From Pirellulales bacterium (GTDB taxonomy: Bacteria > Planctomycetota > Planctomycetia > Pirellulales > JAICIG01), in contig DATKRK010000416.1 in assembly GCA_035532215.1 (NCBI GenBank), positions 13,183 through 77,182 on the forward strand: a stretch of 64,000 nt of DNA, in the 5' to 3' direction. Position numbers and translations under genes: made by a program. Positions 2,185-32,200 of this stretch are shown here, piece by piece (positions within the stretch are counted from its first letter, which is position 1; the number at the start of each line of letters is the position of its first letter). A model generated the notes under the pieces. It had not been told where the DNA came from. It worked only from the letters and a program-made list of their open reading frames with translations, and searched no databases.

Positions 2185-2321
2185 GGGCCGAGCGAGGTGC
2201 AAACGCCGGCCGCAAGCCGGCAAGAGGAAGCTGCGTTCCTCCGGAAAGGTTCGCTCGACGTCCGGCCGCGCCGCAAGTTTTTCGAATGCGCGCAAAACGC
2301 CGGATTGAACGTGCTTTTTTG

Positions 2322-2350
2322 TTGCCTTAAATGTTACGGCCGAGCACAAT
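2322..2350 (+). promoter_or_regulatory. candidate sigma70-type promoter upstream of giant gene 1
   Basis: TTGCCT (2322-2327), 17-nt spacer, CACAAT (2345-2350), in the comparatively AT-rich spacer 2185-2452, about 100 nt upstream of ATG 2453. This is a pattern match only. Confidence 0.2.
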
Positions 2351-2452
2351 CGGTAGGAATTCAACGCTTTCGAAAAAATAGATCGGCGACCCCGGAACAG
2401 GGGAAGCACAATCCCTAGAAACATCGAAAGTTTCGCCTCAGGAGAATGATCA

Positions 2453-17400: not shown

Positions 17401-20400
17401 TCAATTGCGCGTGGACGATCCGTTCGTGGCCTCGCCGCCAGGGCTCGGCTCGAACGTGTTCAAGGACCGTGGCGCGATCGAACGCGCCGACTTGACCGGA
17501 CCGCAAGCCAGTTTGCTGAGCCCGGTCGACAACAACATCCAAGATCAAGATCCGCGAGTCAACATCGTCCACCCGGTCGGCGAGTTGCTCTCTGAATTCC
17601 AAATTCAATTGAACGATGGCGTCGGTTCGGGCATCGACAATTCGACCGTGACGCCGGACCGCGTCACGGTGCGGCGCAACGGCGTGCTGCTCACGCAGGG
17701 GGTCGACTACTCGTTCGTCTACGACAATAACAACCACATCATCCGCTTGATTGCAGCCTCGGGGGTGTGGCAAAACGGCTACGTCTACGACATCGCCCTC
17801 GACAACGGCGTCCATTTCGACCCGCAGGCCGCCGATACCAGCGGCACGCCGCTGGGCATCAAGGACCTGGCCGGCAATTTCCTGCAAGCCGACTTTCCCA
17901 ACGGCTTCACGACCTTCCAACTGATTCTCGACAGCGTGCAGAACGATCCGCCGGCGGTCACCTTGCCGCTGACCGCTCAAACGGTCGCCGAGAATTCGCC
18001 GGGCAGTCCCTACAGCCCGGCGGCGCCCAGTTCCTTGGCCTTCGATACCGCCAACCAGAATACGATTACGGTTTACGATGTCGACGCCAACGGCGGCGTC
18101 GAGCAAATCACCGTCTCGACGGCCCAAGGCACGCTGGCCATCGGCGGCTCGCTGCCGGGCATCAATATCTTGAACTCGAGCAACGGGACAAGCACGTTGC
18201 AATTCCAGGGCACGGTCGACGCACTGAATGCTGCGCTCGATACGCTGGTTTACACGCCCGCGCCGTACTTCAACGGCCAGGCGACGATCCAGATCGTGGC
18301 CAACGACCTGGGCAATTCTCCGCCGCCGGCGAAGTTGACGACCGTGTTCATTCCGGTAACCGTGACGCCCGTCAACAACGCGCCGGTCATCACCATGCCG
18401 GCTACGCAGTCGGTCACCGAGGACAACCCGTTGGTCTTCTCGAGCTCGGGCGGAAATCCGATCTCGGTCTTCGATGTGGACGTGCAAGGCGCCGATACGA
18501 GCAATCCGAGCTATCTCTACACGGAAGAAGTCCGGCTCGACAACTTGCCGGCGATCGCGGGCAACAACAATCTGCCGCAGATCGTGTTAGGAACCACGTC
18601 GGGCATCACCTTCCTGGCGCCGCCCGCCGGCGGGGCCGTGACCGCCAACGGATCGACCGATATTTGGTTCCGCGGCACGCTCTCGGCGATCAACACCGCG
18701 CTCAACGGGCTGAAATTCATTCCGCCGGCCGAAGACTCGACGGCCGAGCCGGGCCTGTATCCCAATCCTTTCTCGTTGACGCTTGTCACGAACGACAACG
18801 GCAACATCGGCGCCGGGGTTCCGCAAATCGTGACGCAGAGCGTTTCGATCACGGTCAACCCGGTGATCGATGCGCCGACCCTCGACAACAGCCAGACGAT
18901 GACGCTCTCGCCGCTGACCGAGAGTTTGACGTCGCCGACTCCCGCCCAGGTTTCGGCGGCCATCTCCGCGGCGGGAGGAAGCAACACCGTGGCCTCGGTG
19001 CTCGCCACCGGCGCCGACGGCGGCTCGCCGATCACGATCAACACGCTCACTTCCGGCGGACAACTCGGGATCGCGATCACCGATGCGACCGAAACCGATC
19101 CGACTCGGGGGACGTGGTATTACTCGGTCGACGCGGGCGCGACTTGGAAGTCGTTCGGCACGGCGGCCACCGACTTCGGCGCGGCGTCGATGAGCCATGC
19201 CCTGTTGTTACGCGCGACGGATCTCGTCGAGTACGTGCCGGCGGCGAATTTCAATACCAACGGCACGCTCGATCCGCTTCCCACGCTGACGTTCACGGCC
19301 TGGGATCAGACCACCGCCGTGGAACCGGCCCAATTGCAGATTCTGCCTTTGGCGCCGGGCTCGGCCGCCAATCTGACTCAAATCGGCCAAGGCGCCAGCA
19401 CGCCGTTCAGCGTCGCCAGCGGCACGGCCACGCTGTCGATCAGCGCGGTCGACAGTCCGCCGCACATCAGCCTGCCGTCGGGCGCCTTCATCACCAACGA
19501 AGACGTGGCGATTTCGTTCAGCGGGGCGAACGCCCCCGTCGTATCGGATCCGGATATCAACGAAGGAAATCTGGCCAACGTCGGCCAGGTCAGCCTCACG
19601 GTTTCAGTCAATCCGGCGCAGGGTACGTTGTCGCTCGGCCCCTCCGTTCCCGGCACGGTGCAAATCATCAACGGCGGGAACGGCCAAAGCAGCATCGCCA
19701 TTCAAGGGCTGATGGCCGACGTCAACACGGCGATCAACGGTTTGAAGTTCACGCCGGCGCTCTATTTCGCCAGCCAGGCCACGGTCAATTTGGTCGTCAA
19801 CGACTTGGGGAACTTCGGCGTCTTGCCGCCGGGCTATCCCAGCGCCAACGGCGGCTTGATCGATACGGAAACGTTGACCATCGACGTGACGCCGGTCCAT
19901 TTCGCTCCGGTGCTCGACAGCAACAACGGCGCCCCGACCTTCGCCTCGGTCGTGCAAAACACGCCGCCGGCGAACAACACCGGCAGTACCGTGGGCGCGA
20001 TGTTGCTGACGGGCGGCTCGATCGTGTCCGACGTCGATCCGGCGGGTTCCTTCCTGGCGATCGACGCCGACGCGGGGGCCAAGCAGGGGATCGCCGTGAC
20101 CGGACTGACGACTGCCAGCGGCGGCATTTGGTACTATTCCACCAACGGCGGCGCCAGCTTCAGTCTGGTTGGCGCGGTTTCGCCGTCGAACGCCTTGTTG
20201 CTGCGTTCCACCGATCTGGTTCGCTTCCTGCCCAACCAGAACTTCACCGGCAACGTGACCATGACCTTCCAGGCCTGGGACCAAACGGATCAGGCGGCGG
20301 CAGGCAGTCGAGTGAATTTGACGACGGCCGGCGCGACGGGCGGCAAGACCGCTTACAGCACCGCCAGCGCCACCGCGACGCTCAGCGTCACGCCGATTCC

Positions 20401-22696
20401 CTTGGCGCCGTCGTTCCATCTGATTTCGACCGCCACGCTGGAAGACAACACCGTCCTTGCCAGCGGCGGCAGTCCCGGCGGCAGCAACCCGAACCTGATC
20501 TTGGTCCCCGGCTTCGCGTATGGCATTTCGAACGGCGCCGGCGGCACGACTGCCACGACGTTTACCGTCAGCGACTACAACAACGACTCGATCCCGTACA
20601 ACGGCCTGTTCTCCGTGCCGCCGACGATTGCTTCCGACGGCACGTTGAGCTATCAGCTTAATCCGGACGTGTTCGGCGTGGCGACGCTGAAGGTCGTCGC
20701 CAGCAATGGCGCGGCGACTTCGGCCGCGCAGCAGACGACGATCACCGTCACGGCCATCGACGATCCGCCGACGCTGGATCCGATTTCGAGCCTCACGGTG
20801 TTGGACAATTCCGGCCAAAACGCCGTCTCTTTGACGGGGATCTCGGCCGGTCTCAACGAGTCGCAGGTCCTGACGATCACCGCGACGTCGAAGGACACGA
20901 GCATCATCCCCAACCCGACGATCAGCTACGCCAGCCCGAACGCGACCGGCCTGTTGTTCTTCACGCCGGTGCTCGGCAAAGCTGGAACCGTGAGGATCAC
21001 CGTCACCGTGACCGACAACGGCAACATCGCGGCGGGCGGCTTGAACTCGTTCTCGCAAACCTTCGACGTCACCGTTCAGAGCACTGTGCCCGTGGCCAGC
21101 GGCGGCACCGTCACCATCGACGAAGGAAGCCAGGGGACGATCGCGCTGAACGGCGTCAACGGCGTGGGCGACAGCGGCACGCTGTCGGCGAAAATTACCA
21201 GCTTGCCCAGCGGCGGCACGTTGTACCAAACGTCCGACGGAATCACGCTCGGGTCGCCGATCACGTCCGTGCCGACGAACGTCTCGAACCCGAACATGCA
21301 GGTGATCTACGTCCCGAACGCCGGCCAGTTCGGCAGCCCCTTCGACAGTTTCCGCTTCGAGGTGACCAATGGCACGCAAACCTCGGCTCCGGCTACTGAA
21401 ACCATTGACGTAACCCAGGTCAATCAGGCGCCGACCTTCACGGCCGGGCCGAACATTAACCTGGCGGCGGGCAATACGACCGCGCAGGTCTTCTCGGGTT
21501 GGGCCAAGAACATCTCGCCGGGCGCACCCAACGAATCGGCTCAAACGCTGACCTTCCTCGTCCTCGGCGATACGAATCCCAGCATGTTCAGCGTGCTGCC
21601 GGCCGTAGATCCGATTACCGGCAACCTGACATTCAGTCTGGCCGCCAACGCCAGCGGATCGGCCACGATCTCGCTGGTGTTGAAAGACAACGGCGGCACG
21701 GCGAACGGCGGCCACGACACCTCGGCGCCGCAGAGCTTCACGATTTCGGCCAGCGCGGCGCCCACGGCGAATCCGGAAACGTATATCGTCAACGACAGCG
21801 GCGCCAGTTTCGTCACTGCGGCCTCGGGAGTGCTGGCGAATGATTCCGATCCGAACGTCGGCGGCGTCATGACCGCGACGCTCGTTTCGGCGCCGAGCTT
21901 CGGCCGCGTGACGCTCAACTCCGACGGCTCGTTCAGCTACACGCCGGGCGGAAGCTTCGAAGGACTCGATCGCTTCACCTATCGCGATGTCGACGCCGGG
22001 CTGAGCAGCAACGTGACGACCGTCACGATCTGGTCTCACGAGGCGGCGATCGTCAACAAGTTCTACCAACAGGTCTTGAACCGAAACGCGGACGACGCCG
22101 GTTTGCAGTACTGGGCCAACCAGTTGCACAACGGCGCTCAGCCCGGCGCCATCGCACAAGGAATCTTCGAGAGCAACGAGCACCTGGACCCGATCATCAC
22201 CCAGTACTACGAGCAATTCCTGCTCCGCGCTCCCGACCAGCAAGGGCTGACCTTCTGGCGCGACCAGGTCTGGAAGGTTTACGGCGGGCCGGAGCAAGTT
22301 ATCGCCGGCATGATCAGTTCTCCCGAATTCTTCCAATCCGCCGGCGGAACCAACACCGGCTGGGTGACGCAGTTGTACCAGCGGCTGCTCAAACGGGCGC
22401 CCGACACGCAAGGGCTCCAATTCTGGGTCGGCCTGCTCGATCAGCATCAGGCGACCGAGTCGCAAGTGGTGCTCGGTTTCCTCAGCAGCACCGAGTATTA
22501 CACGAATTTGGTCGACGGCTTCTTCCAGCAGTACCTCGAGCGGGCGCCGTCGTCGGCCGAGTTGGCTCAGTACTTGTCTCAGCTCCAGGCAGGGGCCAGC
22601 CAGCGGGCCATCCAAATCAAGATCGTGGATACGCCCGAGTACTTGAACAATCCGCCCGCTCCGGCCGTCGGAGCGGCGATTCGGTTGTACTACTAA
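2453..22696 (+). CDS. giant (6,747 aa) multidomain extracellular protein, paralogue 1
   Basis: Uninterrupted 20,244-nt ORF with AGGAGA (2440-2445) 7 nt upstream of ATG 2453. The N-terminus is MGMW, then an Arg-rich stretch, then LEQFEQRLMLT (2567-2599). Recognisable parts: an M10/serralysin-like block with HEIGHALGLGN (4037-4069); PPC-like DxDxYxF sandwiches (~4241, ~11206, ~12007, ~16078); at least 14 TFEF-type modules; GDWGG(L/I)xF beta-helix blocks (~6596, ~10190); an Asp-box SADGGKTW (14492-14515) followed by a MAM/choice-of-anchor-J-like segment (ARIDLGNFAGQQNILLRFDF...GFYIDDIIVG); PbH1-type parallel beta-helix repeats (~16690-17170); cadherin-like/VCBS-type repeats (~17941-22040); and a DUF4214 tail. 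Confidence 0.9.
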   Translation: MGMWSSWRPIQNPEQDRNRRRGARRRGRAARPLVGREMLLEQFEQRLMLTGPQLISIIPDAGGLLLPGDTLNVAPKELTFNFDQNQTINAGTLAGIELVRSGGDGTFGNSNDVQITPGFIGIGTQPNTVVMRFSTSLPDDLYQITIVGSGPNALTNASQEAFNNGVNESQEFRLNLGPQVLAVVPQPISLPDPTTGVRTQAANEIDVYFNQRLQEWAGHPGQLDPALFQLIATKNTATTADDTVYVLDPNVSTSTPAVFADGTTHVAGQVYYNAANNEARLVFGQTSSVPGAINLNTLGTGSFRLRFGNSDQPQQAPLVVPVPPSPDNPSTPGGTGPGDTFSTSMATGALGDGQTKLFDSSIAPMSVNAGLLFPGGDSAPGTQNIADPTSISGLAAWITSQGIQNHLIDGRYTSPGGVTTIPYNFQDIYGSDVNGNLLHNQISTTQEQDVRDIFSLFSYYSGVNFVETPHDGITFAVGDIRAVAPSDPATSVNGIEGPTKTAPFVAIVNGNVNWGQSEYGGAFFAVAMHEIGHALGLGNSYDLPAPNAMGYTGVTGGGEDPNQPTQPANQVGTAEPALPGAGDISALQYLYSTDSKDVDLYKFTLTQQGVLNAQTIAQQLTPTSSLNTVLTLYNELTLLGLPANGGQGVSDGQTFSITSTNPGGVTATTQTFEFNSGLSLTLPAGGVVDGRTFSLSDGTHTVRFEFAVNGRQLSPGDTNTPIDYNANDSLDTIAGDVVQAINSAVKNAGLGVTAQGSQTIDATYSGSGAINIGGDANTTFSAQNAGLTISGNVNVQAGHILVRYAPADTQHDLAIAIANAITGAAVSLGNPNGLNVSATAELNQVQLQGPISLDISGSPTLTSSIQRSIISRNDDFIGTDSLINLNLTPGVYYIGVSSSGNTNYDPNITDSGWGGASNGMYELRLNFQATPSTPTNPAKASLDSYVAPVDTGLNALGQDAPQPLDGDANGTPGGTYNFWFNVTNPTSTIYVDKTPPKPGDISGPLGSLTNPFTTIQAALNSGLLVAGTNLRIEGNEGASFVLPLSAKPFAVGQQFTVSAGTVSAVFEFTSSGAAANGQLLPDGNYAVALPATYTPLGAAFAVQNAIQNVFPSSSPQGDASGDIQVALSSDSANEYVNLTGKLRITLGIDPPPATALSTQPHAAGGTDLVVPLGAAPIVAGQTFQIVAGTVTAKFEFASGAGISPGQLLTDGNYAVVLPATYSAQNVAAALQAAIAASPLSGAAAGNVVVSVTNDLTNYYATLTGSLSISVTVLSTPATPMSFKYSDVAYQIGANNAANQFQPLADGATFDVPRGVTVMIDPGAEFKMSKSIIDVGSSAQGIDRSQGSLQVLGIPGNQVIFTSFADDTVGGQTEFPDTAPTRGDWGGLAFRNDSGLEPLGIFVNYVDEANLRYGGGQVSVNGTPSVFNAVDMESARPTVTNNIIVDSAQAPISATPNSFEKTQFQQNVRLTAAAGSAIVDGQTFQIHGATFEFINVNNPQNSAGNGKYKSLPGVVQVLYHSGFSGPTDTDVQVALEIAEAINGAQQLSHPAVQAAVTGNQVTITNVTSVDSPVALDVPFSGSQSGLNGETFAIKGTVFEFFSGDAFQVPANGGTGIADGATFTITQGANAVTFEFAANGRTLTDGHVAIDYNNNPGATVPLVDTMDTLAREVVQAINAQAAAGAFGAGSPISAAYSGKGVISIGSNASTSYSLGGSGLTLLAGANQAPLTPNNVLVHFNPADTSLALAQEMAAAINAAQIDGGTGQLVYAEAVQSGATARVDLMYSSDVNLSAPGSAPLTMSLLTPLTINTVPGSQLSEGDTFTVNGKTFEFDSGYTLTVPQNLALAAPQSFSISDGTNTIDFDFNGPSPARQDHVNIPYSPGETRDQLAQDIVTAINNSGLKGIFATWLGSLGGQYTGQVNIGGVAASTLPGAPAATQVNTNVVYDNSALTRSGSPGFTGFTSGDVLTVPDLSAATGLRSFLISDGTKTVTFDFNGAPQVGHVNIPFTPGTDTADTIAQAMVAAVNAQSFFGVYATWLGQFGSAYTGQVNLEGVIKGTANSLQYPATLVTANTGGPPTPTTPALQLTGQPGFTGLTAGYVLSLPSTLSPSGVDSFEISDGVKDVTFDFNGPAQPGHVIIAYTSGETPDQLAQGIVTAINAQGFFGVHATWLGQFGTLYAGQISIEGVVAGSVNGNAYPATSVTADIPAAVGDPLILSGQPGADHTGGIPAPFVPTDSASTIASEIGAAVSGSGLDVSANSNTAGAGTVTFQNVDSLVPSPLVMQPSPEPIAYQLQNVFSFGADTLPLAVSNDIFTADYQRIGPEVHGNVLALPQPKVLSIGSPGQVQDGQQFVINNLGFEFDNNNTTTAGYHAVSFTAAQLAAPNALDLLAEDVAAAINAASNPASPQYVQGFNVTATIGSLGSGQVILSSNAANAAVVTNGAPLSIKQSIVENTINGLFVNIRTNLGKSIDTLDVSAEFNATDIPYVITSNLEITGETGGPLGTTGRESARLQVDPGVVVKMLGSRIEVGMGANFVAEADQNHRVIFTSLFDDTFGGGGTFYTNGDDQNPTPPQAAAPGDWGGIYFSPTSKGSIDHALITYAGGSIPIEGGFDSFNAIEIHQAQVRITNSSLLSNASGKSSGTRNGRGANDAAVIYVIDAQPVLVNNIVQNNQGAAISVNVNSLNNALTPDWGRSTGVIDSFTQFADNYGPLVRLNKLGNNSINGMLVRGGTLNTASIWDDTDIVHVVESEIDTTNYATNGGLRLQSNSTQSLVVKLLGASAGFTATGVASNITDRIGGTLQIIGTAGHPVVLTSLYDNNVGAGLTPGDRPDNVTLNGNTTKPSPGDWNSVLFDQYANDNNVAVINEAESTFTGGQGTDNTPGAAQNLGALAPNLKSGDDKQRLGYVVHGFISPDDTHDMDVYSFSAAPGTQVWLDLGNTSMALDAVLELVDANGNVLARSDNSVLEQEDAIQAGNPLVAGPLLSGLIPGGTNLAQPMQSTTFQSNVYPASNVHDFGSINPRDPGMRVVLPGGPLQQGQSNPTYYVRVYSRGPNSNPYVNSPAPGQSAPAESNGLTSGAYDLQVRLQETTQVAGSVVRFASINYAKDGITVLGQPDHSPLAGQSVSSGSNNVTITVPPSPFGSTDPTYFPGQANGPAAAQNLGDLLTTDTSSLSVGGNLTDPGQVDWYSFTLNYDLMQAIQHVNGADKTFSTIFDIGYADGLTRPDTTLSVFNQYGQLILSGRDSNISDQQPQPGAGADTSNLSHGSFGTLDSYIGSAQLPTGYANGTTPGSLAGQNPVGLNSYTYYVAVSSNATLPTAMDATFNANSANPLVRLEPLEGFKRIVEDHIGFTGYTSGNALFNSGNLTSGNQSSGNTMAPQDGALLPIQTVADLQQHVVPYTLDNVVGYAVTDNHLYTINPATGQQETDVSALATDQPPNGVWKDISIRNDGKMFGYRTAYDTTGNSGYFYQIDPGTGAQTLLGGDGAAGKWGLSKEVDSMVWTGDGFNNSYKLFFSIRAANGISALVRANPDTGDTTQTPPYGLYGYMETGLQNGIKIESLAAQDANKNPQIFEGQSFQLTDLAGRTITFVFHNTANPPLPPPPAGAAYIDFASGDSADTVGMEIDSAINQAFFALGAPVNPPANYKPLTANYSFAGTAKPIQPGEVDVNNVASEDFSNASQFNVTSTGVGGYITGMALDPTTGEIYCVSSNGGVYVMDGPNPGSMRYLGASQVFTKAGYSFTGLNVGPQDLDWNGDGTPGDLRHVLIASADVAGGGSVLTAISMDDLAAGNIFNSQPIQAGAPVAIFDVPGVDQNGLSGPTGSYTDNTPLAETGATGIALSPLDFNLWHPTFTRWADPGHGIPNTYSNSRVGGFPTSVTSGDVNFSTNGSAGGEVAGGVSFYFGMDNYMPEPANYFGYNGIDAQYGVLDTNTQKNLTYQTNSAASPVIRQTYNLPGGADGILETNGFSLAGYSSADKPTLYFNYYLDTNNNNTKGVTPGFNDFTQAARVYASADGGKTWQLMATNDATRTYYDTNTNITGQLGELPQFATASADVPATTLNGQPVVDPRQQTQQLFNSTGTWRQARIDLGNFAGQQNILLRFDFHTSGSSDIYSSYNPQFVQGDQYGNPTKPTRAQNLQHEGFYIDDIIVGLAERGEQVTNSPAGQTQFFTTPQNPNFGAPTETLTGQYQLQIRPGQATGQTINPNNSAIELNPNQFDVNDRLTSGYTLVAPEGHFNQSITKTLPSFNLATQAYSVPTQTYTFQNLPTPTGGGTLTISGVGDLEGILEYLKLDGIGDVSVTQNVFFSQAQADKAQQGQFITSTQIHLSQAQLLKLLAAGGGNSIQFNLTPQTPIDGANTNNLDLNNTNPATQVNSLLQLNVTLDYASAPYDGQTFTISDGVNQAVFELDDNNSLVNPSDIRVAFDPTFTAAQLAQAMAAAINQQTLLKVTASTADAAGNNAASNTNDTNDRVNLFGAAWVQVGMPQVTVSGAGAASPPPNTIGNAFKTTLDSAASSGNRAFNGYGELGNAAGTSGISNPRDVNLYQVHLNAGDALTVQLNSGSILSSLQPYLRIFDAAGNEVGNSSTLTQLPTLPDGSGFPPNAFVAPDPYYTFTAQSTGDYYIGVSGAGNLLYDPTKPPAAWTATTPNPAGSTGYYQIHISVGSINVRGVVPPATPSFSFFPPNYEPGQPVNEGTLSYQGQLQLPTSTGNPYTGDPNIGDDGTIRVLKYDYTGDAQVVAPQGSLILESNQITNSSDVGILVSSAPREGLLGQPNPNLPHQGGVVNTPVLNSARLVPGVVVENNLVTNFGNAGIQFSGDTNPAGAPLAAVPFGRLINNTVYGGLQATGKVGILVSNNASPTVVNNIVANTQLGISVDASSQALPSPPVLGANLFSGNAKNTNLGNPAQYPNGDPGSNGIVLTAGQPLFTNPALGNFYLKEYSPAIDSSLNSLVDRPQMTAVTGPLGISPSPILAPDTDMNGQLRVDDPFVASPPGLGSNVFKDRGAIERADLTGPQASLLSPVDNNIQDQDPRVNIVHPVGELLSEFQIQLNDGVGSGIDNSTVTPDRVTVRRNGVLLTQGVDYSFVYDNNNHIIRLIAASGVWQNGYVYDIALDNGVHFDPQAADTSGTPLGIKDLAGNFLQADFPNGFTTFQLILDSVQNDPPAVTLPLTAQTVAENSPGSPYSPAAPSSLAFDTANQNTITVYDVDANGGVEQITVSTAQGTLAIGGSLPGINILNSSNGTSTLQFQGTVDALNAALDTLVYTPAPYFNGQATIQIVANDLGNSPPPAKLTTVFIPVTVTPVNNAPVITMPATQSVTEDNPLVFSSSGGNPISVFDVDVQGADTSNPSYLYTEEVRLDNLPAIAGNNNLPQIVLGTTSGITFLAPPAGGAVTANGSTDIWFRGTLSAINTALNGLKFIPPAEDSTAEPGLYPNPFSLTLVTNDNGNIGAGVPQIVTQSVSITVNPVIDAPTLDNSQTMTLSPLTESLTSPTPAQVSAAISAAGGSNTVASVLATGADGGSPITINTLTSGGQLGIAITDATETDPTRGTWYYSVDAGATWKSFGTAATDFGAASMSHALLLRATDLVEYVPAANFNTNGTLDPLPTLTFTAWDQTTAVEPAQLQILPLAPGSAANLTQIGQGASTPFSVASGTATLSISAVDSPPHISLPSGAFITNEDVAISFSGANAPVVSDPDINEGNLANVGQVSLTVSVNPAQGTLSLGPSVPGTVQIINGGNGQSSIAIQGLMADVNTAINGLKFTPALYFASQATVNLVVNDLGNFGVLPPGYPSANGGLIDTETLTIDVTPVHFAPVLDSNNGAPTFASVVQNTPPANNTGSTVGAMLLTGGSIVSDVDPAGSFLAIDADAGAKQGIAVTGLTTASGGIWYYSTNGGASFSLVGAVSPSNALLLRSTDLVRFLPNQNFTGNVTMTFQAWDQTDQAAAGSRVNLTTAGATGGKTAYSTASATATLSVTPIPLAPSFHLISTATLEDNTVLASGGSPGGSNPNLILVPGFAYGISNGAGGTTATTFTVSDYNNDSIPYNGLFSVPPTIASDGTLSYQLNPDVFGVATLKVVASNGAATSAAQQTTITVTAIDDPPTLDPISSLTVLDNSGQNAVSLTGISAGLNESQVLTITATSKDTSIIPNPTISYASPNATGLLFFTPVLGKAGTVRITVTVTDNGNIAAGGLNSFSQTFDVTVQSTVPVASGGTVTIDEGSQGTIALNGVNGVGDSGTLSAKITSLPSGGTLYQTSDGITLGSPITSVPTNVSNPNMQVIYVPNAGQFGSPFDSFRFEVTNGTQTSAPATETIDVTQVNQAPTFTAGPNINLAAGNTTAQVFSGWAKNISPGAPNESAQTLTFLVLGDTNPSMFSVLPAVDPITGNLTFSLAANASGSATISLVLKDNGGTANGGHDTSAPQSFTISASAAPTANPETYIVNDSGASFVTAASGVLANDSDPNVGGVMTATLVSAPSFGRVTLNSDGSFSYTPGGSFEGLDRFTYRDVDAGLSSNVTTVTIWSHEAAIVNKFYQQVLNRNADDAGLQYWANQLHNGAQPGAIAQGIFESNEHLDPIITQYYEQFLLRAPDQQGLTFWRDQVWKVYGGPEQVIAGMISSPEFFQSAGGTNTGWVTQLYQRLLKRAPDTQGLQFWVGLLDQHQATESQVVLGFLSSTEYYTNLVDGFFQQYLERAPSSAELAQYLSQLQAGASQRAIQIKIVDTPEYLNNPPAPAVGAAIRLYY
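3700..4240 (+). other. serralysin/matrixin (M10)-like metalloprotease-type block of giant 1
   Basis: IPYNFQDIYGS...FSLFSYYSGVNFVE...AMHEIGHALGLGNSYD...DISALQYLY. HEIGH is at 4037-4051 (aa 529-533). HEIGHALGL is the serralysin signature, but the position of the third zinc-ligand His (HEXXHXXGXXH) is Asn. Confidence 0.6.
7949..9110 (+). repeat. three tandem ~130-aa coding repeats (recent triplication of one TFEF-type module) inside giant 1
   Basis: Three consecutive units share ...(S/L)(F)xISDG(T/V)(N/K)x(I/V)(D/T)FDFNG(P/A)...(D/G)HVxI(P/A)(Y/F)(S/T)(P/S)GE(T)...(L/I)AQx(I/M)V(T/A)A(I/V)Nxxx(F/L)xG(I/V)(F/Y/H)ATWLGxxGxxY(T/A)GQ(V/I)x(I/L)xGV. The (D/T)FDF cores start at 8033, 8423 and 8825, giving spacings of 390 and 402 nt. 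Confidence 0.85.
22042..22693 (+). other. DUF4214-type repeat tail of giant 1
   Basis: VNKFYQQVLNRNADDAGLQYW, ITQYYEQFLLRAPDQQGLTFW, VTQLYQRLLKRAPDTQGLQFW and VDGFFQQYLERAPSSAELAQY follow the (F/Y)xxxLxRxxDxxGLxxW pattern. Confidence 0.75.
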
Positions 22697-23213: not shown

Positions 23214-26200
23214 ATGGGGATGTGGCGTTCGCTTCACCCTTTCCATTCGTCCACGCCGAAACCCAGCCGACGCAGCAGCGTCAAGCGATCGAGCCGACGT
23301 CGCGCGCTCAAGCGCCGCGAGACGAATGCTTCGCGCGCAGGCCGGCGAGAACTGCAACTCGAACGCTTCGAAGAGCGTTTGCTGCTGACGGCTGCACCCC
23401 AGTTGTTGTCGATCCTGACCAACAGCAACGACGTGGTTTTTGCTCCCAACGCCGCCACGCAGCCGTTGACCACGGCGCCTCAAGAGCTTGATTTGCTCTT
23501 CAACGAAGGACAGGTGATCGATCCGGCGACGCTCGGCGGCATCCAGATCGTGCGCGCGGGCGTCGACCACACGCTGAACACCGCCGACGACGCGCCGATT
23601 CAGCCCGGTTACGTCGGCATCGGCTCGATTCCCAACGAGGTCGTGGTCCGGTTCGCTTCCACGCTTCCCGACGACCTCTATCAAATCACGCTGCTGGGTA
23701 CCGGTCCCGATGCGCTGACCAACAGCAGCAATCCGCCCGTTCCCTTTTCCAGCGGCAACTCGACGCAACCCAACCAGCGAATCGATTTTCAGATCGACAC
23801 GGCGCCACAGGTGCTGTCGGTCGTCCCCGAACCGATCACGCGCAATTCCGACGGCAGCCTGTCTCAGGCGACGGATACGATCGACGTTTATTTCAACAAG
23901 CCGATCCAACCGCTGCCGACGACGATCAATCAGCTCGATCCGCACCTGTTCCAACTGGTCGCCACGCAAAACACGGCCGATCCCACGGACGACCAGGTCT
24001 ACACGCCGAACAACGTCAGCTTCGACCTTTCGACGAACATGGCGCAGCTCACGTTCGCTGCGCCGATCAGTTCCTTGAGCACCGGCTCGTTCCGCTTGCG
24101 AATCGGCGATAATCAGCCCGTGGCCACCGGCAGCAATGCGGCGCCGGTCACCGTTCCGATTACGGTCGGCTCGGCCGGTTCGACTTTCGGCGACGCGAAC
24201 ACGCTGACGCAAGATCCCGGACCCTATAACGTCGGCGATTTGAACGCCGTGTCGCACCAACTGTTGACGGGCGGCGTGATCGGGCCGGTCAGCGATTTGC
24301 CGGCGACGGCGACGCCGGGCGGAAATCTCGGCCCCGGGCTGAGCGGCATCCCGATCGACAACCACGTCGACCCCAACGCAGCGCAGCCCAGCGGGCAAAC
24401 GCATTACGTGCCGACGATCACCTACAATTTTCCCGACATCTACGGCAGCGTTCCCGGCAATCCGCAACTGCACAACGTCATCACGCCGGCGCAACAGCAG
24501 TTGACGCGGGAGATCTTCCAGCTTTACAGCTACTATTACGGCGTGCAGTTCCAGGAGGTCGGCAGTGCGACGCTGGGCGCCGCCGAATTGGGCGTCGTCA
24601 CCGGCGTGGTGCAGTCGCTCGACCAGTCGGCCCCCGTCGGTTTGACCGGCATCGCTCAGGCGCCCGCGACTCCTTTCCCAGTCACGCCTTTGGCCTCGCG
24701 CGGCGAAGCGTTGGCCGTGATGAACGCGGGTATCTTCAACACGGAAAGCCAATACGGCGGGCCGTGGTTCATGGAAGCCCTGCGTCAGATCGGGATCATG
24801 CTCGGGCTGACGAACGTCAACGGCGCGCCGCCGGGAACGGTGATGGGCGCGGGCGGCAACGACCCGGCCACGAATGCGCCGGCGGAGCCGGTGTTCCCCG
24901 GCAACGCCGACATTCTGCACGGCCGGTACTTGTACCAGCCGGACAGCAACGCCATCAACATGTACAAGTTCACCGTCACGACGCCCGGCGCGTTCAGCGC
25001 CGAGACGATCGCCCAGCGTCTGACCGACGCCAGCGGCGCGCCGGATACGAGCCTGCTGAACACCGTCTTGACGCTGTACAACGAGACGCACGTCATTCAA
25101 CTGCCCACCACGGGCGCCAATCCGGTCGGCTCGGCGATCGTGCCGGGCAGTTCGTTTACGCTCAACGACGGAACATCCCCGGCGGTCACGTTCGCGTTCG
25201 ACAACGGCATAACGCCGATCCCCGCGGGCGCCGTATCGATTCCTTTCACGGCGTCGCAGACCGCGCACGACGTGGCGTTGTCGCTGGCCCAAGCGATCAA
25301 CGGTTACCTGACGACCCACAGTCTGAACGTCTCGGCCAACGTCGAATTCGATCGCGTGGTGCTCAGCGGGCCCTTGACGGTTACGCACAGCGCGTCGCAG
25401 GGTTCGGTCGCCTACAGCGTCGACCGCGAGATCGTCTCGCGCAACGACGACTATTTCGGAACCGATTCGTACCTCAAGCTGCAGCTTGCGCCGGGCAATT
25501 ATTACGTGGCGGTGACCAGCACCGGCAACGCCAATTTCAACCCCAACGTGCCGGACAGCGGCGCCGGCGGCACGACGACGGGCGCGTACAACCTGCGGCT
25601 CGATTTCACGCCCACGCCCGTCAGCACGCTGACCGACGACGGCCTGTCGTTGATCGTGCCCAACGTGCCCCTCGGCGGACAAGGGGGCATTCAAAACCTC
25701 GACAAGTTCACTATTTCTACCGATAGCAACACCTCCGTGACGTTCCAGTTCGTCACGCAGGGTTCGACGCCGCAGACGGGCGTCACTGCCATTCTGGTGT
25801 CGCCCGGCGCCACGCAGGACCAGGTGGCGCAGGCCGTGGCGACGGCGATCGCCAATTCCGGCTTGACGACGCTGACCCTGCGCTACGACGGCCACGGCCA
25901 GGTGAACCTGGGCGGTTCGGCGACGACGACAATCACGACGTCCACGAGCGCCTTGGCCGTGTGGGGCACGGCGACTCGACACGTGCTCGAGGGCAATTCC
26001 GACGGCGCCAGCGGCGCTTACAATTTCTGGTTCGCCTCGAACGACGCCAGCACGATCTACGTCGATAAGCTGTCGGCGGCTACGGCCGATCCGACTTTGG
26101 GAACGATCGGCAATCCCTACAATACAATTGCCGGCGCCTTGCAAGCCGCGTCGGATCGCATCATTGCGCCGACGGGCGCCGCCTTGGCGACCGCGACGCC

Positions 26201-29200
26201 GCAAACGTTCGTAGTCAACGACGGCACGTACGCCGTGACGTTCGAATTCTCGGTCAACGGCGGCGCCGTCTCCGCCGGCAACATCGCGGTCTCCGTGCAA
26301 TCGACCGACACGGCCGCCCAGGTGGCCCAGGAAATCTACAACGCCATTTTAGGCGCCGAACAAGGCGGCTATTTGACGCTCGGCCCCTCGTTTGCGCCGC
26401 CGGCCACGGACAGCGATTTCGTCGACGTGACCGGCGCCGCGTTCGTCGACGTCAAGAACGCTCCGGCGCTGTTGGCGGGCACGAAGATCGTGCGGGTCGT
26501 GGGCAACATCGGCGCCGACAACAGCCTGGGCGTGCCGATCAATCCCCAGCCCAGCGTGTCGACCTTGGCGCCGTCGGGTTCGGCCGGGCAAACGTTCAGC
26601 ATCGCGGCGGGAACGCTGTCGCTCGTCTTCGAGTTCACGCAGGATCCGACCGCAACTCCCGGCAACCTGCTCGCCGACGGCAACTATGCGGTGGCGCTCG
26701 CTCCGGGCGCCTCGGCGCAAGACATCGCCAATGCCATGGCCGCGGCCATCAACGCTTCGCCGCTGGCTCAAGCGGACGGCGGCGCCGTGGCGGCGAGCGT
26801 GACGGGCGACGCCGTCGCGTTTCGCGTGAATTTGACGGGCGTCGGCCAGATCGCGATCAACGCCCAAAATACTCCCTCGCTGATCGCCGCCTCGAACGCG
26901 CAGCCCTACGAGATTGGCTACGACCAATTCACGCACCAGCCGCTGGCCGACGGCGGCGATTTGAACGTGCCTCAGGGCGTGACATTGATGATCGACGCGG
27001 GCGCCGTTTTCAAGATGGAAGGCGCCAACCTCAACGTGGGCCTCAATTCGCCGAATATCGATCGCAGCGGCTCCGCGCTGCAAGTGTTGGGCGCCCCGAG
27101 CAGCTCCGTCTACTTCACGTCGTTCCACGACAACCAACTCGGCGGCATTACCGATAACGTCACCGCCCCGTCGCCGGGCGATTACGGCGGCATCGTGTTT
27201 CACCAGCATTCCGACCTGGAAAGCCAGGGCATTTTCCTGAACACGGTCAATCACGCCAACATCCGCTATGCCGGCGGAACGGTCATCGTCGACGGCGTTC
27301 CGGCGGTCTACAACCCGATCTACCTCGACGGCTCGCGGCCCACGATCGACTACAACACGATCACGCTGAGCCACGACGCCGCAATGTCGGCCGACCCCAA
27401 CAGCTTCCAAGAGACGATTTTCGGCAGCTCGGCCTACGACCCCGCCTCGATCAATCCCAGCATCGGCCCGTACGTCGCCGATTACAACCGCACCGGGCCC
27501 GATATTCATGGCAACCTGTTGTCGGCCGTGGTCCCCGGCGGAATGGCGATCGTGACGCCCGACGCCAGCCAGATCATTGCGGGCGAAACGTTCCTCGTGG
27601 AAACGATCGACGGCAGCGGCAACACGAGTTACGCGACGTTCGAGTTCACGACCAGCTCCGCGTCGATCGTCAATGGCAAGCTCGCCGACGGGAACTGGGC
27701 CGTGTTGTTCAAGCCCGGCAACCCGGCGCAGAACATCGCGGGCGACACGGCGCTGCAAGTCGCGACTGACATCGCCGACGCCGTCAATGCGGCCGGCATC
27801 GCCGGCGTGAGTGCGACGGTTCGCACGGTCACGTCGTCGGACGGAACGACGGCTCAGGAAGCCGTTTTGGCGGGGGTTTCCAAGATCGAACTCCCCTCGT
27901 CGCGAACTTTCAACGCGCCGACCGGCCAGTCGATCGTCGACGGCCAGACCTTTACGATCGTCAACCCCGTCAGCGGGTCCGACACGGTTTTCGAATTCGA
28001 CAATACGGGGGCAGTCGCGGCGGGACACGTCGCCGTGCCGTTCCTGGCGTCCGATTCCGCCACGGCCCTGGCGGGCAAAATCGCCGCGGCGATCAACGGC
28101 TCCAGCACTGGCGTAGGCGCCATTGCTTTGGGCAACGTCGTTATGTTGACTTCGGTGCCGAACATCGCGGTGTCGACTACAGGCTCGGTGATCGCCGGCC
28201 TACAGTCGCTCACAGTCCCCAATGGGAATCTGCTTACCGCAGGTTCAACGTTCTCCATTACCAACAAGAGCAATGGGGCTATTACGGTCTTCGAGTTCAC
28301 GACCAACGCCGCGTCGGTCGTCAACGGCAAGCTCGCCGACGGCAACTACGCGATTGTATACGCCTCCAGCGATCAGGCGGCGACGATCGCTGCCGCAGCG
28401 GCCGCCAAAGTGAACGATCTCGGCTTGGGCTTTGCGGCGATCGCTTCCGGCGCCAATATCGTGCTGACGGGCCTCTCGGATTTCCGCTTCGCTTCGCCCC
28501 TCTCGCTGGATTCGTCGATCGTCGCCAACACGGTAAACGGTCTGTTCGTCCGCACGCAAAACGTGCAAGGGCAGACGCCGGAAACCCTGGACGTCGCCGC
28601 GAGATTCACGGCGACCGACATCGTCTACGTGATCAGCGACAACCTGGTCATTCAAGGCAATCCGGGCGGCCCGGTCGGCAGCACGCCGCGAATCGCCGGC
28701 CGGCTGGCCATCGATCCGGGCGCGATCGTAAAATTGCTCGGCGCCCGGATCGAGGTGCAAATGGGCGCCAACCTGATCGCCGAAGGCGACGCCAACCAAC
28801 AAGTCGTGTTCACGTCGTTGCACGACGACAGTTTTGGCGCCGGCGGCACGTTCGACACCGATGGCGACAACTACAAACTTTCGGCGCCGCCGGCCGTGGC
28901 GCAGCCGGGCGATTGGTCGGGAATCTATTTCGCGCCGACCTCGCGCGGCAGTCTCGATTACGCGAGACTGGCCTATGGCGGCGGAAGCAGTTCGATTGCC
29001 GGCGGGACCGACAATTTCGACGCCATTGAAATCCGCCAGGCGCAGGTCCGAATCGCCGACAGCACGATCGCAAACAACGCCGCCGGCCTGGCGACGACGC
29101 CCACCCGCGACGGCCTGCTGGCGAACGACAGCGCCGCGATCTACGTGCTGGGCGCCCAGCCGACGATCGTCAACAACGTGCTGCTCGACAATTACGGCGC

Positions 29201-32200
29201 CGCCATCAGCATCAACGCCAACTCGCTCACCAGCGACGTCATACCCGACCCTGGCCGCAGCACGGGCGCCATCCAGCAGTACGCCCAGTTCGACGACAAT
29301 CGCGGGCCGCTCGTGAGGCTGAACCGCATCGGCAACATCGAAAATCGTCCGGCAATCAACGGCATGCTGGTTCGGGGGGCCACGCTCGACACTTCGTCCG
29401 TCTGGGACGACACTGATATCGTGCATGTGGTCGAGAATCAGATTTCCGTGCCCAACGTCGATTCGCGAGGCGGCTTGCTGCTCGAAAGCAGCGCCTCGCA
29501 AAGCCTGGTCGTCAAGCTGCAAGGCGACAACGCGGGCTTCACCGCAACGGGTACGCCCTCCGATATTCAGAATCGCATTGGCGGTTCCGTGCAAGTCGTC
29601 GGCACGCCGGGACATAATGTGATTCTAACCTCGCTGCTGGATACCACGGCAGGGGCCGGTTTGACGCCTGGCGGGCAGCCACAAAACGATACGAACAATA
29701 CGGGCGTGGGGACGCCTGCCGATACGCCGCCCACTTTCCCGCCGTCCGGCGGACAGCTTACTGTTACGCCTTCGAACAACGCGGCGGCGCTGGTGAATTC
29801 CATGCTGTTGCGGCCGCTTCCCTCTGGAGTCACGGTGGCCGGCACTAACTATGTCGGCGGAGCGACCGAGGCTGGGACGTACATCAACGGCGACGGAGTG
29901 CCGCTGCAAATCCCGCAGAAGGGCGCCATCCTGACGACCGGCATCGCCCAAATTCCCGCGCAAAACACGAGCACCGACTTCGGAGCCGACCTGGGACTGC
30001 CGGGCGATCCTAGACTTTCAGCGTTGATCGGCGGCACCCCGACTTACGACGCGTGCGAGTTGACGTTCACCGTCAACGTCGATCCGTCTTCGTCCATCAA
30101 GTCGGGCATTTTCGAGTTTCAATTCGGCAGCGACGAGTATCCAGAGTTCGTTGGCTCTTTCAACGACGTTCTGGCCGGCTTTATCGACGGGTCGCCCACG
30201 TCGAACTTTTTGCACGATTCAAAGGGCAATCTGGTGTCGGTGAATAGTGCTTTCTTCGACATCAATAATAACGTTCAATTGCCGGCCAAGTCGCCGCTCA
30301 ACATTGAATACGACGGCATGACTTCCGGGCTCAGAGCGTCGTTCCCTCTGCACTCCGGATTGAATACGATCACGATCGCGATCGCCGACGCCCTGGACGG
30401 AATCCTTGATTCCGGCGTTCTCATGACGGATCTGCACTTCAGCACGCAGAGCGTTGGGGCGGGCGGCGTCACACGCGCGGGGGCCTCGTCGGGCCAGTGG
30501 AACAGCATCACGCTGGACCAGAATTCCAACGATACCAACGTCGCCGTCGTCAACGAAGCCGAACCGGCGAATACCGGCGGCGTCGATACGAACGGCACGG
30601 TCGCCACGGCGCAAAACTTGGGCGTGATGGCGCCGAACATGAAAAGCGGCGACGACACCGAGCGCTTGGGCTTCGTGGTCAATGGCGCGATCAGCCCGAA
30701 CGCTCCGGGCGACATGGACATGTATCGCTTCCAGGCGCAGCCGGGCACGCAAGTTTGGCTCGATATCGGCAACACTTCGCCGGGCTTGGACACGGTGCTC
30801 GAACTCGTCGACGCCAACGGCACCGTGCTCGCCCGCAGCGACAACTCGGGCCAAGAGGCCGCCAACCCCGCGTTGTTGCAGGCGGAATTGCCTGGCAATC
30901 TGGCGCAAACCATGCCGGCCGATACGCTGCTGCACGGCCTTTACGATCCGAACAGCGCCGCCGATCCGGCGCTGCGCGACCTGAACTCCACGAATCCCTA
31001 CGACGCCGGTTTCCGCCTCGTGTTGCCGGGCACGCTCAATCCGAGTCAGCCGCTGAACAACTATTACGTCCGCGTGCGGAGCCGCGGCGCCGATTCGCAC
31101 TACAACGACCTGGGCAAGGGCCTGAGCAGCGGCGTCTATCAACTGCAAGTGCGGCTGCAAGAGCAGGAGGCGTTCCCCGGCTCGACCGTCCAGAACGCCG
31201 ACATTCGCTACGCCACCAACGGCATCCAAGTCATCGGATTGCCCGCTCATTCTCCGCTGATCGCCGAGGCGGGCTCGAGCCAGGCGGCTCACAACACGAT
31301 GGCGACGGCCCAAGATCTCGGCAACTTGCTGACCACCGACCGCAACGCGATCGGAGTGAGCGGCAACCTCTCCTCCGGCACGACGCAGGACTGGTACAAG
31401 TTCGAATTGAACTACAACCTGGCCCAGGTGATCGCCGGGTTGAACAGCGGGGACAAAACGTTCGCCACGATGTTCGACATCGACTATGCCGACGGCCTGG
31501 CGCGCCCCAATACGACGCTCTCCGTTTTCGATGCCGCCGGCAACTTGATCTACGTCGGCCGCGACTCGAACATCGGCAACGATCAGCCGCTGCCTGGGCA
31601 AAGTTCGACCAGCGCCTTGACGGATCTGACGCGCGGTTCGGCGGGCCAGCTCGATCCGTTCGTCGGCACGGTGCAATTGCCCGCCGGACCGACGCGGACC
31701 TATTACGTCGCGATCAGCTCCGACGCCACGCTGCCCACGGCGCTCAACGCCACGTTCGTCAAGGGCGCGGCGCAGCCGCTGATCCGGCTGGAACCGATCG
31801 ACTCGCTCAACCGCATCGTCGAAGATCACATCGGCAGCCAGGGCGGACAAACGGCGCAGGATCCCAAGTCGCTCACGGCCGCCTTCAACGGCAACACCAG
31901 CAGCCAGGCTGGCATCGATCAGCTCAACAGCTCGGCCACGCCCTTTTCGCTGTCGGACGTGACGCTGTTCGTCGACCAGGCCGGCAACAACGGCCACTTG
32001 GAGACGGTCAACCCGTTCACGGGCCAGAGCGAAACCGACATCAACCCCGTGCCTAGCAGCGGTTCGGGCTACGGCGACATTGCGATGCGCAACGACGGCC
32101 AGTTGTACGGCTTTTCGTTGGGCACGATCAGCGCCGGCGGCGGCAACTACAACCTGATCGATACCGGAACGGCCGCGATCAACACGCAAGGCAACGGCGG

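Follow-up and report, generated by a model that had tools for sequence, protein, structure and literature searches.

Two neighbouring giant proteins of a Pirellulales (planctomycete) bacterium, both putatively secreted, harbor 14 and 9 copies of an uncatalogued module of ~85 residues that is probably a small autonomous plug-in domain: the module nests in itself, its copies were gained and lost independently in the two genes by old insertions, and the resulting complements have since been stable. Both genes lie in the window, by which we mean the whole stretch of 64,000 nucleotides analysed here.

Host genes and module copies

Giant 1 (g1) and giant 2 (g2) are collinear, with 27–34% identity in BLASTP alignments (Table 1). 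The scaffold of g2 includes DUF4214, cadherin-like, BNR/sortilin and choice-of-anchor L domains, and the module hosts carry DUF4214, cadherin-like, BNR, beta-helix and choice-of-anchor L domains. The pair shows Pirellulales origin, a length of >5000 aa and extracellular-type domains (putative secretion), and resembles the giant surface proteins of Planctomycetota in size, in the tandem arrangement of giant genes and in the cadherin-like, Big_9 and DUF4214 domains. A third giant, located upstream of the pair, contains RTX repeats. Giant genes are abundant in Planctomycetota and are presumed to have surface or extracellular roles (PMC12673574, PMC11573180); the 2 studies report Pfam domains only and mention neither the module nor nesting.

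Modules were located with an HMM that was seeded on the copies at 9 core positions proposed for g2 by an earlier sequence-only reading and iterated until converged. All 9 cores fall on "VTFEFD"-like strands of the plus-strand frame of the g2 ORF, in which the converged HMM recognized exactly 9 domains (per-domain E 1e-19 to 6e-27). In g1, 17 HMM matches resolved into 14 modules, of which 11 are contiguous and the other 3 are split. The counts agree with the minimum of 9 and 14 copies given by that reading; its interval of 25086–28450 spans M1–M7, although M7 ends at 28487 and M8 and M9 lie at 33813–34373. A model built from the g2 copies alone found the g1 copies at 25–42 bits. True copies scored 25–100 bits, compared with at most 11 bits for the only 4 matches in 100 locally shuffled giants; a match at g1 aa 61–94 (3.9 bits with the g2-only model) lay under this ceiling and was discarded. 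No modules were found in other frames or on the opposite strand of the window. Module residues amount to roughly 1,100–1,900 in each giant. Linear motif scans under-count or mis-count the copies where domains are split.

Table 1. Giant genes and their modules, with positions in the window
Feature	Position	Strand	Residues (aa)	HMM domain (aa)	Description
Giant 1 (g1) ORF	2453..22696	+	6747 aa in total		Collinear paralogue, host of 14 modules (ORF list, translation, BLASTP)
g1 outer A, N-half	4388..4501	+	646-683		Ends "TFEFNSG"
g1 inner A (iA) cassette	4502..4822	+	684-790		Complete module with stalk strands
g1 outer A, C-half	4823..5032	+	791-860		Spliced halves form one domain, 47.0 bits
g1 b1 + b2	5600..6256	+	1050-1145 and 1171-1268		Type b tandem pair
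g1 module 5	6869..7162	+	1473-1570		Opens g1-specific block of 8 modules
g1 composite B	7199..7837	+	1583-1603, 1604-1722, 1723-1795		Outer N-half, inner B (iB), outer C-half
g1 composite C	7889..9307	+	1813-1835, 1836-2221, 2222-2285		Outer N-half, iC1-3, outer C-half
g1 module 12	9482..9772	+	2344-2440		In slot held by M5-M7 in g2
g1 module 13	13160..13522	+	3570-3690		g1-specific insertion, propeller-like region; kept in fragment P0002 and L006
g1 module 14 (m14)	15626..15910	+	4392-4486		Counterpart of g2 M8
Giant 2 (g2) ORF	23214..41426	+	6070 aa in total		Host of 9 modules (ORF list, translation)
g2 M1	25122..25379	+	637-722	637-706	Unsplit; positional counterpart of split g1 outer A and of split modules in L002-L005
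g2 M2	25674..25931	+	821-906	821-898	Between PPC-like domain and "YNFWF"; slot empty in g1 and P0003
g2 M3	26169..26459	+	986-1082	986-1052	Splits beta-helix cap motif "NPYNTIAGALQAA ... GTKIVRVVGN"
g2 M4	26574..26858	+	1121-1215	1121-1196	Type b; counterpart of g1 b1/b2 (85% bootstrap)
g2 M5	27558..27863	+	1449-1550	1449-1543	Type b motif
g2 M6	27918..28169	+	1569-1652	1569-1648	Best profile match; AlphaFold2-modelled copy
g2 M7	28218..28487	+	1669-1758	1669-1754	Type b motif
g2 M8, first part	33813..34046	+	3534-3611	3534-3605	Strands 1-3, helix, strand 4
g2 M9	34056..34307	+	3615-3698	3615-3691	Nested in last hairpin of M8
g2 M8, last strand	34308..34373	+	3699-3720		"GDRVEVYGAAAV"

Fold and subtypes of the module

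The AlphaFold2 model of M6 (pLDDT 90.7, pTM 0.81) suggests a single fold of about 75–95 residues with the order strand-strand-strand-helix-strand-strand. The conserved positions of the window copies are core hydrophobic or turn residues only (F14, F27, F29, A54, and A60), and the residues kept across the family are G11, F14, F25, E26, F27, and A59. Two flavours of module, a and b, had been distinguished in both giants, and both motifs do occur. The copies with the type b motif "FEF..NG.L.DGNY" are g2 M4, M5, and M7 and g1 b1 and b2; type b, however, is a local subclade with a loop longer by 4–7 residues, and type a is not a class but an unresolved remainder that contains at least 2 further supported subtypes. 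The flavours are not unrelated folds, as every copy matches one profile over its full length.

Independent histories of the two complements

Copy numbers and slot maps differ between the collinear paralogues, and independent expansion and contraction, as proposed from the sequence, is borne out: one-to-one positional orthology fails, about 3 slots correspond, and the rest are gene-specific. Copies of both genes were placed in neighbour-joining trees (Poisson distances, bootstrap, 85–89 columns; deep nodes poorly supported). The slots M1–outer A (by flanks), M4–b1/b2 and M8–m14 (57% bootstrap) correspond across the genes, and the clades iA+iB (96%), iC1-3 (93%), and b1+b2 (81%) contain g1 copies only. 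Many copies occupy scaffold positions at which the other gene has no module. The cap motif split by M3 is uninterrupted in g1 (5480–5557), and at the position of M9, g1 m14 and P0003 run "DRVNLFG"/"NRVDLFG" straight after strand 4, without an inserted module. Orthologues in other Pirellulales MAGs reveal additional gains and losses, and more distant orthologues are set apart by precise insertions, some of them in the M1 loop.

A strictly orthologous history, in which the ancestor carried all slots and simple losses alone left 9 and 14 modules, would fit the 3 matching slots, the clustering by slot of modules in the giant-2 orthogroup (52–100% bootstrap) and the identical module order of close orthologues (L001 for g2, L006 for g1). 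We nevertheless consider it improbable, given (i) the sister copies limited to g1; (ii) the recent sisters S0b and S0c in P0003 (96%); (iii) the M1 loop, which holds cassettes of differing subtypes in L002/L005, L003, L004, and g1 but is uninterrupted in g2, L001, and P0003, arguing for gains over losses; and (iv) the slot of 8 modules in g1, which is empty in g2 and contains an unrelated Fn3-like insert in P0003.

The copies in the window are old. Adjacent copies, whose comparison had been proposed as a check, share only 48–67% of their nucleotides; the best pair is 61% identical in amino acids and 67% in nucleotides, and third-position identity is near background. Long identical DNA repeats between copies are absent from the window, where only short motif-level matches occur. 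Recent gene conversion or unequal crossing-over as the source of the copy differences was rejected for the window on nucleotide identity, and such conversion has left no sign there. By contrast, length-variable "periscope"-type tandem-repeat surface proteins have near-identical adjacent DNA repeats, which permit frequent changes in copy number. We also consider improbable an active process that keeps the complement variable, whether ongoing unequal recombination or gene conversion of the periscope kind or a dedicated diversification system. Two observations would suit it: the slot-1 inner cassettes of L003 and L004 resemble a mosaic, being identical for ~27 codons and then diverging sharply while the rest of the proteins are very similar, and in the tree P3_S4in joins g1_iB instead of the copies from its own slot (91% bootstrap). 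However, the candidate donors of the mosaic cassette are just 58–61% identical at the DNA level, and the low identity of the window copies, the lack of long repeats and the identical complements of close orthologues all count against it. Expansion and contraction as a continuing process, as the sequence-only reading had it, thus does not hold.

Nesting of modules within modules

The copies had been read as a linear series, but several are in fact nested inside other copies, which makes domain insertion, and not repeat slippage, the mechanism. In three g1 modules the sequence breaks off after the "TFEFxSG" strand and resumes behind 1, 1, and 3 complete modules, respectively; in g2, M9 lies inside M8. 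When the inserts were removed in silico, each pair of half-matches gave one full-length alignment, and with the model from g2 copies only, each spliced pair gave a single domain match of 32–47 bits. Single N-half matches are weak (2–15 bits), and the N-half of outer B was located by eye; all 3 g1 N-halves close with the same signature, "FEFxSG[YLD]x[LF]". The AlphaFold2 model of composite B (aa 1578–1800; pLDDT 79.1, pTM 0.68) has the secondary-structure order of a module within a module, with the outer halves, covered by only 2 alignment rows, at pLDDT 62–84. The unsplit M1 groups with the spliced split module of L002 (100% bootstrap); the two share conserved flanks and differ by a precise insert of ~115 residues. 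The split halves are also conserved in orthologues (P0002, L006). A split-and-nested arrangement is thus shown at the sequence level, and the two halves would re-associate into one fold, with the cassette termini side by side.

The habit is general in the family. Among the 150 best-matching proteins, 95 contain balanced brackets, 158 in all. N-halves (239) and C-halves (230) are nearly equal in number, and an N-half is immediately followed by a C-half in only 2 cases. The order N-half, 1–6 full modules, C-half occurs 135 times, versus 34 for the reverse order and 53 +/- 5.5 in label shuffles (maximum 71 in 1000). That the half-matches are what remains of truncated modules decaying in a linear tandem array is the least credible reading, since, set against the short and weak N-half matches and the 81 N-halves and 72 C-halves left unpaired in the census, there stand the balanced counts, the strongly asymmetric order, the near absence of direct N–C adjacency, the single-domain scores of spliced halves, the retention of halves in orthologues, the unsplit orthologue of a split module and a predicted secondary structure that seems to fit a complete outer module.

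As in other cases of domain insertion, a loop of the host module takes up the guest, so that the host is interrupted in sequence and the guest is not. The module differs from that class in that host and guest belong to the same family, one loop can hold 1 to 5 guests, and brackets are themselves nested within other brackets. We know of no described family with such a self-nesting habit. Literature searches on nested or recursive domain insertion, Flagellin_IN, and planctomycete giant proteins yielded no account of the module.

Proposed route of growth

In the explanation that we favor as probable, the module behaves as a plug-in: whole cassettes lie in frame within exposed loops of conserved scaffold domains, and also within the loop between strands 2 and 3, or the final hairpin, of other copies; a cassette seen in a module loop has a short entry strand on one side and an exit strand on the other. 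The outcome is a branched, nested architecture and not a linear string of beads. The complements of g1 and g2 probably came to differ through (i) old lineage-specific insertions at different slots; (ii) tandem duplication of cassettes within an insertion (iC1-3, b1/b2); (iii) related cassettes being used again in other host modules (iA/iB); and (iv) losses. Once fixed, a complement is stable, as the close orthologues show. The module itself may serve to decorate an extracellular giant protein, or as a binding surface on it, exposed to the solvent. Such nesting offers a natural, much-replicated set of cases for learning which loops accept an inserted domain and how a domain can be host to its own copies; it has a bearing on protein engineering, in which switches and sensors are built by domain insertion.

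Family size and nearest known families

An exhaustive representative search returned at least 2046 representative proteins, mostly giants. A word-indexed protein search with the module alignment returned only 2 fragments of a giant-1 orthologue, and the same kind of search with the composite B sequence and a broad alignment gave zero matches. All 5 related genome loci are from Pirellulales MAGs, and relatives are named "[Pirellulales bacterium]" and "[Pirellulaceae bacterium]". None of the curated models in Pfam-A 2025 and NCBIfam 20.0 matches the module above threshold. The module belongs to a large family without a Pfam or NCBIfam model in putatively secreted giants of Pirellulales and Pirellulaceae. 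Planctomycete giant genes are numerous and costly and large parts of them are unannotated; with at least 2046 carriers lacking a curated model, a family model would improve annotation at once.

The nearest relatives are the Flagellin_IN motif and FliD, together with decoration domains of phage sheath and baseplate proteins. Among sub-threshold Pfam matches, Flagellin_IN (PF07196) is the most common (13 of 90 family members at E<=1, best E 8.7e-4; 2 of 20 window copies, E 0.16), and no copy reaches its gathering score of 22.7 bits, one scored example having 11.2 bits. The likeness covers the part of the module from strand 3 through the helix, which ends "AIN", and strand 4 to strand 5; the module consensus helix ends "AAIN", so that the conserved "IN" at the centre of a strand-helix-strand motif is present, and A60 is found in >=90% of copies. 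The module differs from Flagellin_IN in (i) an extra hairpin at the N terminus, "GxTFxI..DG..VTFEFD", which the IN motif with its 55 positions lacks; (ii) its hosts, which are giant multidomain, putatively secreted proteins and not flagellar axial proteins, with no flagellin N- or C-terminal domains found in domain searches; and (iii) its repeated nesting in itself. Among PDB sequences, the family profile matched FliD best (6iwy_A, E 9.8e-4). Foldseek gave no significant structural match in the PDB; flagellin 4nx9 and FliD 5fhy were near the top of the lists, all non-significant.

The outer domains of flagellin and FliD are likewise built by inserting one domain into another, and the nested habit has a bearing on how such domains arose in flagellins, cap proteins, and phage sheaths. 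It is conceivable, but rather unlikely, that the cassette with its entry and exit strands is a self-propagating plug-in, copy-pasted in frame with a preference for the same loop of its relatives; recursive, tree-like architectures several levels deep would then represent a distinct mode of giant-protein growth, possibly the principle behind the outer domains of flagellin, FliD, and tail sheath.

Phage tail sheath and baseplate-J-like proteins carry a single decoration domain, by contrast with the many-copy nested family described here, and a tblastn search of M8+M9 against 50,697 phage records gave no match. Tail sheath chains recurred in the PDB profile searches (8fop_T, 9hz7_L, and 9cb9_A; E 0.1–0.3), and in PHROGs the tail sheath family phrog_165 matched (E 0.0024). 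The only significant Foldseek matches were predicted viral structures, namely A0A1P8DIQ1_1 (E 3.1e-4, query TM 0.81, 31% identity) and a baseplate J-like protein (E 8.3e-4), followed further down by a tail sheath protein at E 0.04.

Genomic setting

The DNA is chromosomal (approximately 63% G+C), and its neighbouring giant genes, giant 1 and giant 2, encode collinear paralogues with an identity of 27–34%. The C-terminus of a third giant is located upstream of giant 1; therefore, the + strand carries a tandem of at least 3 giant genes. Housekeeping genes (M20 peptidase, seryl-tRNA synthetase, and UvrC) lie 3' of the giants. Giant 2 includes beta-helix, choice-of-anchor L, BNR/sortilin, cadherin-like/Big_9, and DUF4214 (four matches) domains, and NCBI names of relatives follow such other domains ("choice-of-anchor L domain-containing protein" and "DVUA0089 family protein"). 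Giant genes are abundant in Planctomycetota, where surface or extracellular roles are presumed (reviews PMC12673574, PMC11573180).

Positions of the giant genes and of the composites of giant 1
Feature	Position	Strand	Description
Giant 1 ORF	2453–22696	+	6747 aa; tandem with giant 2
Giant 2 ORF	23214–41426	+	6070 aa; tandem with giant 1
Third giant, C-terminal 726 residues	4–2184	+	DUF4214 (three matches) and RTX (one repeat); immediately precedes giant 1
Composite A	N-half aa 646–687; C-half aa 774–840		complete module inside, aa 684–758
Composite B	N-half aa 1583–1603; C-half aa 1724–1773		N-half GETFAIKGTVFEFFSG; complete module inside, aa 1612–1685
Composite C	N-half aa 1813–1834; C-half aa 2224–2264		complete modules inside, aa 1840–1904, 1973–2033, and 2113–2166

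Copy number and fold of the module

A profile seeded on the nine giant 2 copies (M1–M9) converged immediately and revealed 9 domains in giant 2 and 17 matches in giant 1. The giant-2-only model scored the giant 1 copies at 25–42 bits and the giant 2 copies at 64–100 bits; when the giants were locally shuffled, 100 versions gave 4 matches in all, with a maximum of 11 bits. In a six-frame scan of the whole window, no module was found outside the two giant reading frames, and none in the visible part of the third giant. Each of the nine cores listed for giant 2 in the sequence-only reading falls on a VTFEFD-type strand. The interval given there, 25086–28450, contains M1–M7; M8 and M9 are located at 33813–34373. 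Homology and module matches in this interval occur in the + frame only, and the long minus-strand ORFs that overlap it (e.g., 26349–28028, 559 aa) are shadow ORFs, as is usual for coding DNA with a high G+C content.

The AlphaFold2 model of M6, for which 20 contiguous window copies were aligned, was confident (pLDDT 90.7, pTM 0.81) and consisted of strand TFxI, strand VTFEFD, strand HVAVPF, a 14-residue helix with AAIN at its end, and two strands. Only core hydrophobic and turn residues are conserved, namely F14, F27, F29, A54, and A60 in the window copies and G11, F14, F25, E26, F27, and A59 in 90 copies from other proteins; this conservation included no polar cluster hinting at catalysis. 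Of the two flavours proposed earlier, the type b motif is real in M4, M5, and M7 of giant 2 and b1 and b2 of giant 1, but one profile spans both flavours. The type b copies fit the whole of this profile, differ in having a longer loop between strands 2 and 3, and are of the same fold as the other copies rather than a separate one.

Nesting of modules

The module is a compact domain family whose copies lie within loops, either of other domains or of fellow copies. The copies had previously been taken as linear, which overlooked that half-matches in giant 1 bracket complete matches in 3 composites. The N-halves are weak individually, and that of composite B was located by eye. When the inserts were removed, each half pair aligned end to end with intact modules, and the spliced pairs were matched as single domains by the giant-2-only model with 47.0, 32.4, and 41.4 bits, approximately the sums of their halves. 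All 3 N-halves terminate in FEFxSG and are followed by an entry strand (LSLTLP, AFQVP, and YTLTVP), and an exit strand closes each cassette (GLTISG, GLTLLAG, and LILSGQPG). In the AlphaFold2 model of composite B (aa 1578–1800; pLDDT 79.1, pTM 0.68), two strands and a short strand precede a complete strand-strand-strand-helix-strand-strand unit, which is followed by a short strand and then strand-helix-strand-strand; the two halves may pack together. In giant 2, M9 is lodged in M8, after strand 4 and before the final strand (GDRVEVYG); the equivalents of this final strand in giant 1 module 14 (m14, DRVNLFG) and in P0003, a 6690-aa relative (NRVDLFG), are present without an inserted module. We consider the nested architecture probable.

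A search of 1.84 billion sequences with the module profile revealed 2046 representative proteins at E ≤ 1e-3 and 237 at E ≤ 1e-30. The best 150 of the 2046, mostly 2–8 kaa with 3–23 matched stretches per protein, contained 1033 full matches, 239 N-halves, and 230 C-halves, counts that are not independent events because the proteins are phylogenetically related. Balanced brackets numbered 158 across 95 of these proteins, some inside other brackets, and an N-half was directly followed by a C-half only twice. The order N-half, one to six full modules, C-half occurred 135 times versus 34 for the reverse order, and 53 ± 5.5 times (maximum 71) in within-protein label shuffles (n = 1000). Odd numbers of full modules per bracket (one, 61; three, 29; five, 12) were far commoner than even numbers (two, 7; four, 4), which could reflect a few conserved composite units common to related giants or a structural constraint.

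We propose that the entry and exit strands of a nested cassette would pair as a two-stranded stalk joining the cassette termini, such that in-frame insertion would leave the host fold intact. Growth would proceed by insertion and then local tandem duplication within the insert, and the outcome would be an extracellular giant protein with a branching array of small, variable domains exposed to solvent. This array might serve as decoration, spacing, or binding surfaces, a reading in which we place far less confidence than in the nesting.

Module complements of giant 1 and giant 2

Global alignment with module tracks and landmark motifs placed the copies in 8 slots.

Module content of the slots in the two giants
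Slot	Giant 2	Giant 1
After LNTVLTLYN	M1, unsplit	outer A (split host) with guest
Inside PPC-like domain	M2	empty
Splitting beta-helix cap motif NP(Y/F)xTI..AL...G..(I/L)R	M3	empty
Type b slot	M4	b1 + b2
Between PNSF(E/Q) and ADY.R.GP..HGN	empty	eight modules
After ADY.R.GP..HGN	M5–M7	one module (m12)
Propeller-like region	empty	m13
M8 slot	M8 with M9 nested inside	m14

A neighbour-joining tree of 23 modules, a simple method applied to few columns (89 columns, 300 bootstraps), gave a mixed answer to whether copies cluster by position or by gene. Independent expansion, as suggested by the sequence-only reading, agrees with the gene-specific clades, which include the modules inside the composites (iA+iB, 96%; iC1–3, 93%) and b1+b2 (81%), but two positional pairs cross the genes (M4 with b1/b2, 85%; M8 with m14, 57%); beyond these, the tree supports little. 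The pattern is neither pure orthology nor pure concerted evolution. Nucleotide comparison of the copies gave no sign of recent conversion in the window: the closest pair, iC2/iC3, has 67% identity (third positions, 52%) against background medians of 53% and 46%, and a repeat finder returned only short motif-level DNA matches. The complements differ through lineage-specific events that, judging by this divergence, are old.

Module complements of related loci

A conserved giant 2 scaffold segment matched five loci (65–89% identity) in the species-representative genome set, all from "Pirellulales bacterium" MAGs. The closest (L001, 89%) had the same nine modules as giant 2. The giant 1 orthologue L006, in a frameshift-ridden assembly, had the giant 1 order including all 3 composites, with which the fragments P0001 and P0002 are consistent. 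In the contigs of L005 and L006, giant genes are split into many short ORFs with shifting frames, most likely owing to indel errors of long-read assemblies; gene calls from contigs of this kind, such as P0001 (200 aa) and P0002 (139 aa), are fragments rather than genuine small proteins.

The M1 orthologue is split in L002 and L005 (78–81%), where VSFEFNTG is followed by FALQLPG, ~115 residues, and then NPSTSSAVKVLYSP, with conserved flanks. L003 and L004 (65%) had a different cassette in this loop and an extra module upstream, and L004 had a guest in the strand 2–strand 3 loop of its M8 orthologue. P0003 had three additional modules in tandem, a guest within the counterpart of M4, and a module inside its BNR propeller, and lacked M2 and M9. 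In a 71-module tree, giant 2 orthogroup modules grouped by slot (52–100% bootstrap), the spliced L002 host grouped with unsplit M1 (100%), and extra modules of P0003 and L004 had diverse affinities (P3_S0b/c, 96%; P3_S4in with giant 1 iB, 91%; L004_S1in with L004_S7, 75%), L003_S1in falling inside the type b clade. The presence of cassettes from different lineages in one loop favours repeated events of insertion, or replacement, over loss only.

The M1-nested cassettes of L003 (aa 770–870) and L004 (aa 770–877) are nearly identical over the first ~27 codons and diverge thereafter (~53% amino acid identity overall), whereas the adjacent modules are almost identical; in sequence, the cassette resembles a mosaic or a segment that has been replaced. 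Within the same proteins, the best candidate donors had just 58–61% DNA identity and were rejected.

Relation to known families

The module matched no Pfam-A or NCBIfam model above threshold. Recurrent sub-threshold signals were confined to the strand 3–helix–strand 4–strand 5 part: Pfam Flagellin_IN matched 13 of 90 members (best E 8.7e-4), FliD (6iwy_A) matched the module profile with E 9.8e-4, FlgI and phage tail sheath chains matched weakly (E 0.1–0.3), and a tail sheath PHROG gave a signal in the same part. Structure searches of the PDB listed the same proteins, none significantly. Matches were significant in a library of predicted viral structures, where the module hit baseplate-J-like proteins of phages and uncharacterised structural proteins (best TM 0.81, E 3.1e-4). 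Together, the sub-threshold signals and the viral matches suggest that the module may work like, and be distantly related to, the decoration domains that face outwards on flagellar and phage tail proteins; membership in Flagellin_IN is not demonstrated.

Non-module differences between the giants

A metzincin-like HEIGHALGLGN motif is kept in giant 1 (4031–4078, aa 527–542; sub-threshold Matrixin match, E 4e-4), and more distant relatives have HEIGHLLGxGH. The aligned giant 2 stretch (24768–24824, aa 519–537), EALRQIGIMLGL, is without the His/Glu ligands, and this protease-like domain is probably inactive. In P0003, an unrelated Fn3-like insert (...WFPVVGATGYKIYRGTASG...) lies between PNSFTETVFG and IDYERAGPDISGN (aa ~1700–1850), in the loop occupied by eight modules in giant 1 and empty in giant 2; it seems that this PNSF(E/Q) loop is generally prone to domain insertion. 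Giant 2 (29823–30428, aa 2204–2405; NCBIfam NF038133, E 5e-33) and P0003 have a choice-of-anchor L domain, which giant 1 lacks at the corresponding position (...TTKPSPGDWNSVLFDQ...); thus, the paralogues differ by insertion of non-module domains too.
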